This document shows, one piece after another, positions 8,114-19,427 of a DNA stretch of 64,000 bases. How positions within the stretch are numbered: the first letter of the stretch is position 1; each line of letters begins with the position of its first letter. The stretch spans positions 6,808-70,807 of the forward strand of contig CAYILA010000001.1 in the NCBI GenBank assembly GCA_964364265.1, read 5' to 3'. This DNA is from an uncultured Candidatus Saccharibacteria bacterium. GTDB taxonomy: Bacteria > Patescibacteriota > UBA1384 > XYA2-FULL-43-10 > 1-14-0-10-43-13. Position numbers and translations under genes: made by a program. Under the pieces are notes generated by a model. The model had not been told where the DNA came from, did no database searches, and was given only the letters and a program-made list of their open reading frames with translations.

Positions 8114-8684
8114 AAGCGAGGCCTTTTATAAGGAGATGGATAGAGCCCGAATCGGGAGCTCCATCTCTCTTTCGGTGATTTTATTTCTCTTCTTTATCAT
8201 CTTGGCCGTTGGAATTTTATATGTCGTATACGCCCGCGGCGTTTTTGTGATTGATGGATCACCTTTGAATTTAAGTTCCATTTGGACCAAGACCAGCAAG
8301 AATACTCCGCCGGCAAGCGAGGGAAATGTTGTTCGGATTAACGAAGAGGATCTTGGGCGCGATCTGAAAATCAACGACCCTTCTTTTCCGGTCAAAAAAG
8401 CCAACCTGACGATATCGAATTCCGGGATTTTGTTGATTGGTAAGACGGGCGAAAGTTTCCTGTCTTTAAAAATTGAGATCAAGATATTACCTAAAGTTGA
8501 AAATGAAAAACTGATTCTATCAATCGCCGAGATTAAAAGTGCCGGAGTGGTTGCTCCGAAAAGCATCATCGATATTTTCACGCCGCAAATAAATACAATC
8601 TTGGAAAATACGAAGATTACCGACGGCAAGGTCAAAGATGTCCGGCTCTTCCCCAAATATATGGAAATAGAATTGGCGGAGTGA
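8064..8684 (+). CDS. hypothetical membrane-anchored protein (one N-terminal TM)
   Basis: An ORF carrying the TM ISLSVILFLFFIILAVGILYVVYA. It overlaps the end of murJ and its start codon is uncertain. Confidence 0.45.
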   Translation: MMKVPIEQNLEQKKENKSEAFYKEMDRARIGSSISLSVILFLFFIILAVGILYVVYARGVFVIDGSPLNLSSIWTKTSKNTPPASEGNVVRINEEDLGRDLKINDPSFPVKKANLTISNSGILLIGKTGESFLSLKIEIKILPKVENEKLILSIAEIKSAGVVAPKSIIDIFTPQINTILENTKITDGKVKDVRLFPKYMEIELAE

Positions 8685-9427
8685 TGAAAGCATTAATTTT
8701 CTCCGATGTTCATGCCAGTAATTCTACTCTAGCGTTTTTAAAAAAAGAAATTTCTAAATACGATCTTTTGATATTTTCCGGCGACCTTACCAATATGGGG
8801 GAGCCGGTCTCTTTTGCTGATGATTTTATTTTAATTATTAAAAATGCCGGAATACCGCTCTTTTGGGTGCCGGGCAACAACGATTTTGGCGCTACCTACG
8901 ATATTTTGAATCAGGAAATACCTTCGCTGGAGGGTAGAGTGGAGGAATTTAAGGTCTCTCGTCCCGATAAATCGGGATCTCGAGACGCCGCACCAACGGT
9001 GCGGCGGTTTACCGGTGTCGGGGGATCCCCCGCTTCTTGGGCTGGGGCGTACGGCGGGAATAAATCGGTGGCACAGGAAAAAATCGCCGGCACTATTTTT
9101 ATCTCTCATTATCCGCCGCCAAGAATTTTCAATTACCTGATGCCGGGAAAATCCGAAGGACTCTCCCCCATCTTTGAAAATTCGAATATCGAATATCGAA
9201 TATCAAAACAAATTCAAAATTCGAAATTAGAAATTCGAAATTCGTCATTGTCAATTACGAAGAAATTGACTTATTCGCCTATTGTCCATATTTGCGGGCA
9301 TATCCACTATCAACAAGGCATCGCCTATCTCGGCGAGACTAAAATAATTAAACTTGCCTCCGCAGAAACCGGGCATTATGGTATACTTGATCTAGATAAT
9401 TTAGAAATAGATTTCCGGAGATTCTAG
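8681..9427 (+). CDS. metallophosphoesterase (calcineurin-like) with two in-frame low-complexity/palindromic inserts
   Basis: The MPE motifs are ordered SDVHAS (DxH), SGDLTNMG (GDxx), VPGNNDFG (GNHD-like), ISHYPP (H) and ICGHIHYQQ (GHxH). The spacers between motifs III-IV and IV-V are about 30 aa longer than usual. Confidence 0.65.
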   Translation: MMKALIFSDVHASNSTLAFLKKEISKYDLLIFSGDLTNMGEPVSFADDFILIIKNAGIPLFWVPGNNDFGATYDILNQEIPSLEGRVEEFKVSRPDKSGSRDAAPTVRRFTGVGGSPASWAGAYGGNKSVAQEKIAGTIFISHYPPPRIFNYLMPGKSEGLSPIFENSNIEYRISKQIQNSKLEIRNSSLSITKKLTYSPIVHICGHIHYQQGIAYLGETKIIKLASAETGHYGILDLDNLEIDFRRF

Positions 9428-9771
9428 TTGTCATTCCGACCGAAGTGGAGGAATCTTTGAAATTGTATTATGTTTATATAATGACCAGTCCAAGTAGAGT
9501 TTTATACATTGGAATGACTGACAATTTGGAGCGTCGAGTTTCTGAACACAAACAAGGATTACTCAAAGGTTTTACCAGTAAGTATAAATGCAAGATTTTA
9601 GTGTATTTCGAAAGTTCAAACGATGTCAGTGCGGTTTTGGAAAGAGAAAAACAATTGAAACGATGGAACAGGCAAAAAAAGATTGATTTAATCGAGAAAA
9701 TGAATCCCGAATGGAAGGATCTTGGGGAAGAATTATCATAAGATCCCTCCGCGTTGGTCGGGATGACAGTG
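9427..9771 (+). mobile_element. GIY-YIG gene bounded by ~27-bp imperfect inverted repeats (TGTCATyCCGACC...GGAGGrATC)
   Basis: The left arm is ttgtcattccgaccgaagtggaggaatc (9428-9455). The right arm gatccctccgcgttggtcgggatgacag (9744-9771) is its imperfect reverse complement. A related cargo-less copy sits at 18688-18760. Confidence 0.6.
9445..9741 (+). CDS. GIY-YIG nuclease family protein (YhbQ/UPF0213-like)
   Basis: LYYVYIMTS...RVLYIGMTDNLERRVSEH and a KQLKRW segment match the GIY-YIG catalytic-domain pattern (GIY ... YIG ... R ... E ... N). Confidence 0.8.
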   Translation: MEESLKLYYVYIMTSPSRVLYIGMTDNLERRVSEHKQGLLKGFTSKYKCKILVYFESSNDVSAVLEREKQLKRWNRQKKIDLIEKMNPEWKDLGEELS

Positions 9772-9828
9772 GTAAATGTCGGGATAACAAAAAGAAAAGC
9801 CTGGGACGACAATTAGGAAAGGTTAATT

Positions 9829-10016
9829 ATGAGAACAATAATATTGGCTTCAACATCGCCGCGGAGAATTGCCGGGGACACTTCTTCAAAAAGCATCTTG
9901 ATTTCGCGATAAAGTATGCATTAAAATATTCCGGTATCGATCCGGTTTTGCAAGAGTTAGCCGAGGGATGTATTAAAGAGATAAAAGCAGATTATAAAGA
10001 ATTCATAAAGGAGTAA
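9829..10016 (+). pseudogene. maf: remnant of maf (nucleoside triphosphate pyrophosphatase/septum formation protein), frameshifted N-terminal fragment
   Basis: After an AGGAAAGG RBS, ATG encodes MRTIILASTSPRR, the canonical Maf N-terminus (xxILASxSPRR), then stops after 27 codons. The overlapping frame continues with a Maf-like ...DPVLQELAEG.IKEIKA... segment. The reported 101-aa ORF 9711..10016 lies in that second frame. Confidence 0.4.
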
Positions 10017-10017
10017 G

Positions 10018-10422
10018 ATGCGAGAAGGTGAACTGCCACCAGAAAATAGTGATTGGGAAAAGAATATTTTTCAAGAACTTGGTCGGGATATCGAGCAGGG
10101 TAATATTTATCTCAAAGAAACCAATATAAGATTAAGTGAAGCCTTGAAAGATTTGCAAGCAGCAGAAAACCAACTTGCTGTGTATCTTGATGGGAACTCT
10201 TTCGCTGCGGATAATCAATTGAAACCGATGGCGACCAAGGAGGAGATTGAAGAATTGGACCAGAATATTTCCGGAATGAGGAATGAAGTCAAAATATATA
10301 GCAAATTACAAGATGACTTGATTTCAACGATAGATCGAATCCAGGAAGCGGACAGAAAGCTTCTTGATTCTTTGTTGCATGCACCAGCTCCGGAAGACAA
10401 TCCGGATGATAATATCAAATAG
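10018..10422 (+). CDS. hypothetical coiled-coil protein
   Basis: An ORF whose start abuts the upstream stop. It is charged and Q/E/L-rich with heptad-like segments. Confidence 0.4.
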   Translation: MREGELPPENSDWEKNIFQELGRDIEQGNIYLKETNIRLSEALKDLQAAENQLAVYLDGNSFAADNQLKPMATKEEIEELDQNISGMRNEVKIYSKLQDDLISTIDRIQEADRKLLDSLLHAPAPEDNPDDNIK

Positions 10423-10440
10423 CAAGCTAATAATTAAACC

Positions 10441-10465
10441 AATGTACACTTCCAAGGTGTACATT
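10441..10465. promoter_or_regulatory. perfect 9-bp inverted repeat AATGTACAC-N7-GTGTACATT directly upstream of nfo (operator or terminator hairpin)
   Basis: Seen directly in sequence. No T-run follows it, and it lies 22 bp upstream of the nfo RBS. Confidence 0.4.
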
Positions 10466-10486
10466 GGGCAAATGAGAGAGGTTGGA

Positions 10487-18091: not shown

Positions 18092-18667
18092 TTAGCGGCT
18101 TTTTTTGAGGTTAAGTACAACGAGAGAGATCGGAGGGATAATAATTAGAAGTGTTTTGTATTGGAATATAATCCGAACTACCTTTGAAACTTCCAGAATG
18201 TGCGTCCTCGTGGCTTCGGGCAGAAAGCCGACGATGGAAGCGATAATCAGAGCCATTGCCAATCCTGAATATATTATGACCTCGAAGGGAGAGATGTCAC
18301 CCTCGCGTCTGTTCGATGAGTTAATGGCGGCGGTAATGGCCAGAATTGAACCAACGAACAGTACGATTGTAATGGTTGAAACCGAGACATTCGAGCGAAT
18401 CCAGAGCTGGTTGGCGATAGTGGCATTGCCGTTGAAAAAATCGAAAACAGTTTTCGATAAACTTTCCGAGATAACGAGACCCATATATACCGAACAAAGA
18501 GTGGTGATTGTCTTATCCCGCCTAAGAATAAAACCATAGGCAATACCAACAAAAAAGGCAAGCCCAATAAAAACATCCCAAGTGGGAAGCGGCATCGTAA
18601 CCCTCCAACTAGAAAAGACATCTCCATTATCGTAGATTTGGGGTAGTTTGTAAAGTTTATAACACAA
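18092..18667 (-). CDS. polytopic membrane protein (hypothetical)
   Basis: It has 4-5 hydrophobic helices. It is preferred over the overlapping + strand ORF 18105..18539, which has no such features. The start may be at the internal MPLPTWDVF. Confidence 0.5.
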   Translation of the reverse strand: MCYKLYKLPQIYDNGDVFSSWRVTMPLPTWDVFIGLAFFVGIAYGFILRRDKTITTLCSVYMGLVISESLSKTVFDFFNGNATIANQLWIRSNVSVSTITIVLFVGSILAITAAINSSNRREGDISPFEVIIYSGLAMALIIASIVGFLPEATRTHILEVSKVVRIIFQYKTLLIIIPPISLVVLNLKKSR

Positions 18668-18687
18668 CGAGTTCGCAAATTTCTGAA

Positions 18688-18760
18688 TGTCATCCCGAGT
18701 GGTGAAGTTCTGGAATCGAGGGATCCCTCCACTTTCATAATCGCATCGGTCGGGATGACA
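18688..18760. mobile_element. cargo-less copy of the inverted-repeat pair that bounds the GIY-YIG gene at 9427-9771 (empty site or MITE-like element)
   Basis: tgtcatcccga...tcgggatgaca forms 11-bp perfect terminal inverted repeats. The interior carries ggaatcgagggatccctcc, matching the inner ends (ggaggaatc / gatccctcc) of the occupied element. Confidence 0.55.
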
Positions 18761-18806
18761 GATGTGTGGTTATTCAGAAATCTCTTGGCTTACTATATTA
18801 ACCTTG

Positions 18807-19427
18807 TTAGAACCAGCCCCGTTTTTTCTTGTTCTCGCTCTCTTTAATTTTCTGCCAGAGTTCTTTTTGCTCTTTGGAGATGTGATTTGGCATCTCGACT
18901 TTAATAGTAATAATCAGATCGCCCCGTTTTTGACCCTTGTAACTTTTGCCTTTGCCGGAGAACCGAAAGGAGGTTCCGGATTGGACGCCGGTCGGGATAT
19001 CAAATTGAATTTCCTGGCCGTCGAGAGATAACTTAATTTTATCTCCAAGAACGGCTTGGGCGGGGGAGATCCGGACTTCGGCTTGGACTTGGGAAAATGC
19101 CTGTCCGAAAAAATCTTCGAATATATCACCGAATCCGCCGAAACCGAAATTGCCAAAATCGAAGCCCTCGAACCCGCCGTATCCACCTGCGTTACCGGCG
19201 CCATTAGAAAAAGAAGCGCTTCCAAAACGGTCGTATTGAGCTCTTTTTTGCGGATCAGAGAGAATTTCGTAGGCGCGATTAATCTCTTTGAATTTTCTCT
19301 CTTCTTCTTTCCCTCCGCCGCGATCCGGGTGATATTCTAAGGCAAGCTTGCGATATGCTTTTTTAATTTCGTTTTGATCCGCATTTTTAGAGACGCCAAG
19401 AATTTCATATAAATCGTTGTCAGTCAT
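18807..19427 (-). CDS. dnaJ: J-domain protein (DnaJ-like, lacks the CxxCxGxG zinc-finger region)
   Basis: The N-terminal J domain reads DLYEILGV...YHPDR. It is followed by a G/F-rich region and a short C-terminal beta domain. No Cys repeats are present. Confidence 0.75.

Follow-up and report, generated by a model that had tools for sequence, protein, structure and literature searches.

A probable cargo-less doublet of Ssn-type hairpin repeats in a groundwater Patescibacteria genome

The DNA analysed here (the window, 64 kb in full length) comes from a Patescibacteria metagenome-assembled genome from Hainich groundwater, sampled at well H51. At 18688-18760, it carries a 73-bp intergenic palindrome that holds no open reading frame (ORF). 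The palindrome consists of two Ssn-type hairpin repeats placed back to back, which converge and are fused at a shared GATC. Very probably, it is a cargo-less, non-autonomous fused SRM doublet and the counterpart of a second element in the window (the ssn element, 9429-9768), which encloses the gene of a GIY-YIG protein homologous to the nuclease SsnA. SRM is the repeat class that includes the Neisseria NTS/dRS3 repeat. The 73-bp doublet has the geometry of the occupied copy minus the gene and spacer. Such doublets are widely dispersed, the window copy is absent from the corresponding spacer of relatives, and no target-site duplication accompanies it.

Ssn proteins have about 94 aa and a single GIY-YIG domain. 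Their target is an oriented hairpin repeat, which they bind only as single-stranded DNA (ssDNA) and upstream of which they cut, at a distance of a few nucleotides (PMC11893778). In Neisseria this repeat is called NTS (CGTCATTCCCGCGMAVGCGGGAATCYRG), and its general name is SRM (Chenal et al. 2025, PMC11893778). The ssn genes are typically flanked by repeats (SRM-ssn-SRM), a layout that these authors liken to insertion sequences and to REP/RAYT systems, and the characterised proteins leave double-stranded DNA (dsDNA) uncut (PMC11893778). The pairing of Ssn and SRM was first described in 2025, in cultivated Proteobacteria only. The multiplication of the repeat and the mobility of ssn together with its repeats were left open in that work (PMC11893778).

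The palindrome, its repeat units and the ssn element

The 73-bp element reads tgtcatcccga gtggtgaagttctggaatcgagggatccctccactttcataatcgcatcgg tcgggatgaca. The first-pass annotation had described a 73-bp sequence with perfect 11-bp terminal inverted repeats between a dnaJ-like gene and a membrane-protein gene. Both the sequence and its intergenic position are confirmed, the latter by Pfam matches and by the lengths of homologues, and imperfect complementarity reaches 28 nt. By our estimate, chance would yield about one 11-bp inverted repeat within 100 bp per 64 kb, so such a repeat is not rare in itself. In the window, the exact 10-mer GTCATYCCGA has four occurrences, against an estimated expectation of about 0.25, and all of them are termini of the two elements. 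Motifs of this type recur at hundreds of loci elsewhere. Only tRNAs reached the gathering threshold in an Rfam search of the whole window, and nothing credible at E <=10 was found in 18550-18850.

The two units of the doublet lie on opposite strands with their GTCAT ends outward and their 3' arms sharing the GATC (Table 1). Both have long loops of 17 nt, and the loop sequences of these two units, one of type A and one of type B, are related to each other. All four units of the window, two in each element, are oriented and follow the pattern GTCAT-ATYCC...GGRAT-C, with a conserved GTCAT on the 5' side and a C after the palindrome.

Table 1. Features of the window and fused doublets lying in-frame in genes at other loci (designated L and a number; positions there are those of the locus)
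Feature	Position	Strand	Remarks
Left type A unit GTCATTCCGACCGAAGTGGAGGAATC	9430..9455	+	3' arm GGAGGA, putative ribosome-binding site of ssn
ssn gene, 94-aa single-domain GIY-YIG nuclease (by homology)	9457..9741	+	TTG start; Pfam GIY-YIG E 1.8e-15
Right type A unit GTCATCCCGACCAACGCGGAGGGATC (reverse-complemented)	9742..9767	-	abuts ssn stop codon
Degenerate extra terminal half-site tcgggataaca	9779..9789		10 nt past right end of ssn element
Promoter-like TTTACA-17-GATAAT of membrane gene	18626..18654	-	just past 73-bp element
Outer inverted-repeat arm ATTTCTGAAT	18679..18688		10 nt, 100% complementary to partner; locus-specific, outside repeat family
Fused convergent doublet of two Ssn-related hairpin motifs (TGTCAT...ATGACA)	18688..18760		intergenic, 73 bp; fits metagenome-scan pattern GTCATCCCGA-N-GAGGGATCCCTC-N-TCGGGATGAC
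Unit type B, GTCATCCCGA-G-[loop]-C-GAGGGATC, long-loop	18689..18725	+	shares 4 nt GATC (18722-18725) with unit A
Central GGGATCCC, overlap of both 3' arms	18720..18727		holds GATC and GGATCC
Unit type A, GTCATCCCGA-C-[loop]-G-GAGGGATC, long-loop	18722..18759	-	architecture as both ssn-flanking units
Outer inverted-repeat arm ATTCAGAAAT	18772..18781		11 nt beyond right end of 73-bp element
In-frame doublet in CysRS	L240 6759-6806
In-frame doublet in IleRS-like synthetase	L267 3648-3706
In-frame doublet in UvrA	L197 3617-3664
In-frame doublet in GatA-type amidase	L262 2292-2339
In-frame doublet in ComEC	L202 8429-8498		two inserts
In-frame doublet in Tgt	L244 8274-8345
In-frame doublet in AlaRS	L027 14242-14315

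The structure of the unit was read from two scans. A genome scan with the pattern GTCATYCCGACC-N4-20-GGAGGRATC, in which Y and R were left free, found at least 120 stretches. The matches listed span Acidobacteriota, Chloroflexota, Bacteroidota, Patescibacteria, Planctomycetota, Clostridia and more. Metagenome contigs were searched for the fused form with the pattern GTCATCCCGA-N8-30-GAGGGATCCCTC-N8-30-TCGGGATGAC, and at least 118 loci were found; the counts below that come from either scan refer to the matches listed. The stem pair Y/R is of Watson-Crick type in 157 of 159 cases from the genome scan and viral-contig loci, the other two being wobble pairs. The closing pair N/N' is of Watson-Crick type in 187 of the 200 units from the metagenome scan and is evenly split between C:G (type A) and G:C (type B). 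The hairpin is supported because both of these pairs covary, and the unit is therefore GTC-AT-xyz-GA-N-loop-N'-GA-z'y'x'-AT-C, with a 5-bp stem ATYCC/GGRAT that is followed by a tandem GA/AG step and a single closing pair. G.A mismatches in tandem have a stabilising effect. The loops measure either 4-5 nt or about 13-20 nt. The published SRM expression was too strict for these sequences, and a working definition of the unit was used, namely GTCAT plus 3 nt and, after the loop, the reverse complement plus ATC.

The occupied element begins with tgtcattccga (9429-9439) and ends with tcgggatgaca (9758-9768), and the GIY-YIG ORF is enclosed between these ends. Reading the sequence corrects its boundaries from the 9427-9771 given earlier. 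The ends of the two elements had been called identical, which holds for the right end, whereas the left end matches at 10 of 11 positions, with T for C. On both sides, ssn is flanked by the hairpin repeat, in plus orientation on the left and minus on the right, and where the stems of the two units differ by T to C in one arm, the opposite arm shows the corresponding A to G. Compared directly, the occupied copy without its ORF resembles the centre of the 73-bp element. The similarity of this centre to the inner junctions, as it was first described, stands in part. The sequence gatccctcc does equal the inner right junction, whereas ggaatc lies in the loop of a unit and its pairing with ggaggaatc is coincidental; the true counterpart is cgagggatc (18717-18725), with ggagggatc on the other strand.

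Three loci are known in which ssn lies inside a convergent pair, and the left unit is of type A (GGAGG) in all of them. Its 3' arm, GGAGGRATC, stands 2-7 nt before the ssn start (window 9447-9459; L027 9990-10003; L244 9065-9083, minus strand) and looks like the Shine-Dalgarno sequence of the gene. Next to ssn, half-sites of the repeat were seen in duplicate, in the window at 9758-9789 (TCGGGATGACA-N10-TCGGGATAACA) and at L027 10277-10319 (CTCGAGATGACA-N15-CTCGAGATGACA), and a Planktothrix locus has three in tandem by ssn (TGTCATTCTGAG, L025 1840-1895). They may be a footprint of cutting or repair.

By homology, the enclosed ORF (9457-9741) is a gene for an ssDNA nuclease of the Ssn family. 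The Pfam GIY-YIG domain covers residues 4-76 of 94, and the only other match is weak and overlapping (T5orf172); Pfam thus gives the catalytic domain alone and no DNA-binding module. The protein is 44% identical over 85 aa to a 94-aa ORF of N. gonorrhoeae (BLASTP, E 5e-26), and its Y7, Y17 and E64 align with the catalytic residues mutated in N. meningitidis SsnA (Y6, Y17 and E64). The gonococcal ORF was found at a single tblastn locus, in a chromosome sequence filed among plasmids that served as the ssnA reference, and lies between canonical NTS repeats (CGTCATTCCCGC..GCGGGAATC). From its length, residue numbering and NTS flanks, we infer that it is the orthologue of the meningococcal protein. 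Homologues measure 85-144 aa, mostly 93-113 aa, and those that are 55-73% identical to the window protein come from Berkelbacteria, cyanobacteria, Alphaproteobacteria, Planctomycetota and others. The protein fits no specific NCBIfam model. PDB and NCBIfam searches brought up weak matches only, to UPF0213 and to intron endonucleases, and the window protein is considered distinct from UPF0213 because even the best PDB matches reach only E 0.004.

The two insertion sites in related genomes

The doublet lies between two genes of the minus strand, a dnaJ-like gene upstream (18807-19427; Pfam DnaJ and DnaJ_C) and a gene for a 167-aa membrane protein downstream, whose true start is the ATG at 18597 (homologues have 166-167 aa). 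Two more assemblies of the same population share an identical spacer. The gene order grpE-dnaK-hyp-dnaJ-membrane is retained in relatives. The dnaJ-membrane spacer measures 211 nt in the window and 140-178 nt in the relatives, whose orthologous spacers show no trace of the element; the nearest relative at this locus has a DnaJ that is 77% and a membrane protein that is 84% identical. The motif GTCATYCCGA is missing from about 73 kb of the relatives' loci. The sole part of the spacer that the relatives conserve is TTGACA-17-GATAAT, the equivalent of the promoter-like sequence that follows the element in the window. The sequence comparison supports the view that the 73-bp element behaves like an insertion, because it is absent from the orthologous spacers of relatives and has near-copies at unrelated loci. 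Its flanks (...ttctgaa / gatgtgt...) contain no target-site duplication.

The same position might suggest a regulatory hairpin of the host, that is, a dnaJ terminator or an mRNA-stabilising stem-loop whose resemblance to the flanks of the GIY-YIG gene is incidental. The element starts 46 nt past the dnaJ stop and ahead of the next gene's own promoter. The RNA of the transcribed strand is predicted to fold at -35.5 kcal/mol (z -3.4) into a long hairpin, which is lengthened by a local 10-nt inverted repeat, and a canonical terminator occupies the equivalent slot of one relative (L007). However, a scan for canonical terminators gave no call at the element and no U-run is present. The element is conserved in no relative examined, it also occurs at unrelated loci and within coding sequences, and its motif matches the ssn flanks and hundreds of loci far beyond chance. 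This explanation is therefore very improbable. The possibility of a conserved terminator of the adjacent gene had also been raised at the outset, and the absence of the element from the relatives' spacers speaks against it. A regulatory role can only be secondary to the repeat origin, and the predicted fold suggests that the element may end or stabilise the dnaJ mRNA as such a secondary effect. The outer arms ATTTCTGAAT and ATTCAGAAAT, which lengthen the predicted hairpin, bracket the doublet asymmetrically, one abutting it and the other 11 nt away. They are absent at the occupied ssn copy and at the near-copies L195 and L244, and they could represent an older dnaJ terminator into which the doublet inserted.

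The occupied element lies after the metallophosphoesterase gene (8681-9427). The nearest relative at this locus (L149, from the same sample as L003; Nfo 75% identical) has only 19 nt between the metallophosphoesterase stop and the nfo start, and L150 has a small ORF between the metallophosphoesterase gene and the next gene. Neither a palindrome nor an SRM is present at the allelic site of L149 or L150. Compared with L149, the window has 1,059 extra nucleotides (9428-10486), of which the ssn element forms the first 340. The element is followed by a short ORF whose N-terminus is Maf-like (MRTIILASTSPRR, from 9830) and by a 134-aa ORF, which has no Pfam match and no similarity to the L150 ORF in the same position. 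At the junction, L150 840-855 (GGAGATTGTCATGA) can be compared with window 9419-9434 (GGAGATTCTAGT|TGTCATTCC), and TGTCAT pre-exists where the element starts. This may be a coincidence or a hint of target preference.

These allelic sites bear on the idea of an empty homing site, which was part of the original interpretation. The palindrome would then be the target of a GIY-YIG homing endonuclease with its insertion point at the central GGATCC, and 9429-9768 would be an invaded site. Homing endonucleases of the I-TevI type share the catalytic fold. The occupied copy minus its ORF comes close to the centre of the 73-bp element, and ssn lies inside a convergent pair at the three Patescibacteria loci (the window; L027 with the near-identical L028; L244). 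Unlike the I-TevI type, however, the window protein is a single catalytic domain of 94 aa without a DNA-binding module, and its characterised relatives do not cut dsDNA (PMC11893778). The 19-nt gap of L149 contains no palindrome that an endonuclease could have invaded, nor does the site in L150. Elsewhere, ssn lies beside or outside doublets (Neisseria, Planktothrix, L026 and L250), and it was found near 5 of the 118 doublet loci. Because the allelic sites are free of palindromes and ssn occurs outside doublets elsewhere, the homing model is without support and is scarcely credible.

A dispersed family of fused doublets

The convergent, fused arrangement is not peculiar to the window. Over 1.18 Mb of loci, neighbouring units no more than 120 nt apart were convergent in 94 cases, and the other orientations were found 32, 21 and 15 times. 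Within the first set of loci, the window and its identical copies L001 and L002 were the only convergent pairs with a negative spacer; the metagenome scan later showed that the fused form is common. The matches include at least 100 distinct sequences of 48-92 nt, the shortest version having 48 nt. Heterotypic A+B doublets like that of the window make up 83 of 123. No match to the fused-doublet pattern was found in viral contigs.

The long-loop variant of the window has two near-copies at unrelated loci. The first, at L195, matches over 73 nt with 85% identity; it is found just downstream of rpsJ, in a contig from the same aquifer well, and is the sole sequence that this contig has in common with the window. 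The second, at L244, lies in-frame within tgt and adjoins an ssn gene that is itself inside a convergent pair. A similar coexistence of occupied and cargo-less forms is seen in Berkelbacteria (L027), where ssn lies within a convergent pair and a cargo-less doublet, made of the same two types of unit, is found 4 kb away.

The flanks of 120 fused doublets were compared. A T at -1 and an A at +1 are present in 86-88%, and the 5' side is poor in G. Beyond this T/A, the palindrome is not extended into the flanks. Abutting direct repeats are no commoner than in shuffled pairings, which indicates no target-site duplication in the family as a whole.

Many doublets lie inside genes. A stop-free frame of at least 200 codons spans 46 of 119 doublets, low-GC loci included. 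The host genes range from aminoacyl-tRNA synthetases to ComEC (Table 1), and Pfam confirms CysRS, UvrA, the GatA-type amidase and TGT. The inserted doublets encode peptides such as VIPxExEGSL..RDD or SSRxxxRDPS..GMT. Only 2% of NTS copies are intragenic in N. meningitidis (PMC11893778).

Convergent pairs also enclose cargo other than ssn. Elsewhere, the cargo ranges from 2 to about 450 nt in all sizes, non-coding remnants included. An identical 257-nt non-coding segment was found between SRM pairs in two different viral contigs (L018 83-409 and L022 131-457). A 194-nt segment (L073 4556-4821) has inverted repeats that run well past the SRM units. By their sequence, these are composites that resemble MITEs, or miniature inverted-repeat transposable elements, and are built on the same ends.

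This variety of cargo would also suit an origin of the 73-bp element by deletion. A former ssn element would have lost its ORF by recombination between the inner GATC sequences, and its ends would have been fused at GGGATCCC. The termini and the convergent orientation are those of the occupied copy, and the junction is an exact 4-nt overlap of GATC, which also borders the occupied ORF (...ggaatc / gatccctcc), as expected of a microhomology deletion. Nevertheless, the 73-bp doublet consists of B+A units with 17-nt loops, whereas the resident ssn copy has A+A units with 5-nt loops, and because unit types and loop lengths differ, the resident copy is not the source of the doublet. At L195 and L244, fused doublets carry the same loop sequences. 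The fused form is also widespread and very common, with a minimal version of 48 nt, which indicates that it spreads as a fused unit and does not arise locally again and again. A deletion is therefore unlikely.

The first-pass annotation had read the palindrome as an unoccupied site or a deletion-derived MITE. What remains of that reading is a cargo-less palindromic partner with the same termini and convergent geometry; the empty homing site and the local deletion are not supported. Several traits of a classical MITE are present, namely terminal inverted repeats, small size and the lack of an ORF. The same ends bracket ssn, which would be the autonomous partner if its nuclease acted as a transposase. 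The evidence supports a MITE-like non-autonomous partner, but the element is not a classical MITE, as there is no target-site duplication.

Possible mobility and relation to known systems

A wider reading of the family can be put forward tentatively; we regard it as possible but somewhat doubtful. Fused heterotypic SRM doublets (48-92 bp, TGTCAT...GGGATCCC...ATGACA) would be a distinct class of dispersed mobile palindromes that Ssn-type GIY-YIG nucleases move through ssDNA. A doublet with ssn inside would be the autonomous form, its left arm serving as the ribosome-binding site of the gene. The cargo-less form would settle in-frame in essential genes (aminoacyl-tRNA synthetases, UvrA, GatA-type amidase, Tgt and ComEC) of Patescibacteria and other phyla.

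The main reading, of a cargo-less doublet paired with an Ssn nuclease, includes a mechanism whose steps can be drawn by analogy with the SsnA proteins of Neisseria and Wolbachia. Ssn would bind the sense strand of the motif only, and only when the DNA is single-stranded, as during replication, repair or the entry of transforming DNA. It would cut a few nucleotides 5' of GTCAT, so a convergent doublet would receive one cut per strand, just outside each end. As in REP/RAYT systems and REPINs, the pair of nuclease and repeat might then account for the spread and maintenance of doublets. A comEC gene (DUF4131 and Competence domains) adjoins the grpE-dnaK-dnaJ cluster in two relatives (L004 2676-4190 and L007 3841-5367). 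By analogy with Neisseria, where incoming ssDNA is a substrate of Ssn, the ComEC uptake channel would supply such DNA in these genomes of the Candidate Phyla Radiation (CPR).

A number of points weigh against the main reading. Ssn is a nuclease that is not known to transfer strands or to copy DNA, and a nuclease alone does not explain copying. The activity of the window-type enzyme is predicted solely by analogy with the biochemistry of other SsnA proteins. The published SRM expression, HGTCWYN(0-2)YYVSBRHN(0-5)WNVSBRGN(0-2)RNCYNB, matched none of the window units and 9 of 16 in the Neisseria locus, and the window units have the GA/AG step where the consensus expects stem pairs. On sequence, they are an SRM-like subtype beyond the published consensus and thus outside the set that its authors tested. 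Nearest-neighbour folding of DNA gave weak folds for the single units of the doublet, at -1.4 and -2.7 kcal/mol, values that do not surpass those of shuffled sequences. In ssDNA, a long hairpin that runs through the 11-bp ends is favoured (-13 to -15.6 kcal/mol), and the fold that Ssn needs may be a minority form according to these models. Lastly, ssn lies within the fetched stretch at few doublet loci (the 5 of 118 given above), and the 64 kb hold a single doublet and a single ssn element.

The window elements resemble the published Ssn/SRM pairs in several ways. A 94-aa GIY-YIG homologue of SsnA is bracketed by oriented hairpins with GTCAT in the 5' flank and C after the palindrome, and further copies of the repeat occur elsewhere without the gene. 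The differences concern both the unit and its arrangement. The stem of the window units has 5 bp, a tandem G.A step and 1 bp in place of a perfect 9-bp stem; the units flanking ssn point their GTCAT outward in the window and inward in Neisseria; and the repeat occurs as a fused heterotypic doublet whose units miss the published consensus. The host belongs to Patescibacteria (CPR), a group that is unmentioned in PMC11893778. Convergent pairs of the same class also occur in the N. gonorrhoeae locus, 54-59 nt apart. The dRS3/NIME pairs of Neisseria enclose RS segments of 50-150 bp and form arrays, whereas the window units are fused without a spacer and solitary.

Two other repeat families offer comparisons. 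REP/BIME repeats, which are paired with RAYT transposases, and REPIN doublets are short hairpins that occur mainly as inverted doublets. They share with the window system the inverted doublets, a single-copy, repeat-flanked gene for an ssDNA enzyme that recognises hairpins, the lack of target-site duplication and the frequent location at gene 3' ends. The window enzyme is a GIY-YIG protein by Pfam and not a Y1 HUH (IS200/IS605-like) transposase, and no strand-transfer chemistry is known for it, so the resemblance is one of function and not of membership. Rickettsia palindromic elements (RPEs) are palindromic repeats that are tolerated in-frame in conserved protein genes. The sister doublets in CysRS, UvrA, the GatA-type amidase and Tgt are like them in habit; the window copy is intergenic. 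The parallel with REP/RAYT was already drawn by Chenal et al. (PMC11893778).

The pairing of Ssn and SRM is already known, but the doublet variant of the window is undescribed in the literature searched. That literature yielded no description of this stem architecture, of the fused heterotypic doublet or of its presence in CPR genomes. It likewise yielded none of ssn inside a doublet with a Shine-Dalgarno sequence in the left arm, or of frequent in-frame doublets. No paper was found that joins RPEs and GIY-YIG proteins, and nothing specific was found on the motif strings or on intragenic palindromes in Patescibacteria.

The window provides a comparative case, with an occupied and a cargo-less copy in one small CPR genome, both absent from the allelic sites of the nearest relative. 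If the wider reading is true, the system would parallel REPIN/RAYT on the basis of a GIY-YIG enzyme and would invade genes as RPEs do, and the 73-bp element would be one recent insertion of a mobile doublet class. It becomes testable whether a 94-aa nuclease drives a REPIN-like repeat system and whether some unexplained insertions in CPR proteins are fused doublets. The family also offers new nuclease-motif pairs for the Ssn-based ssDNA tools that Chenal et al. proposed (PMC11893778).

Two further observations were made on individual genes. The metallophosphoesterase gene next to the ssn element contains two inserts (8950-9040 and 9170-9250), of which one is GC-rich and palindromic (gtctctcgtcccgataaatcgggatctcgagac ... 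gggggatccccc) and the other is of low complexity (ttcgaaat-type). Its orthologues measure 187 to 306 aa, and because of this range of lengths, repeats of other classes seem to accumulate in the gene as in-frame insertions. In the ssn homologue of L250 (8705-8971), an in-frame TGA stands at the position of the conserved glycine in the G-T-L-Y motif, which suggests a host that translates TGA as Gly (genetic code 25; Gracilibacteria or Absconditabacteria).

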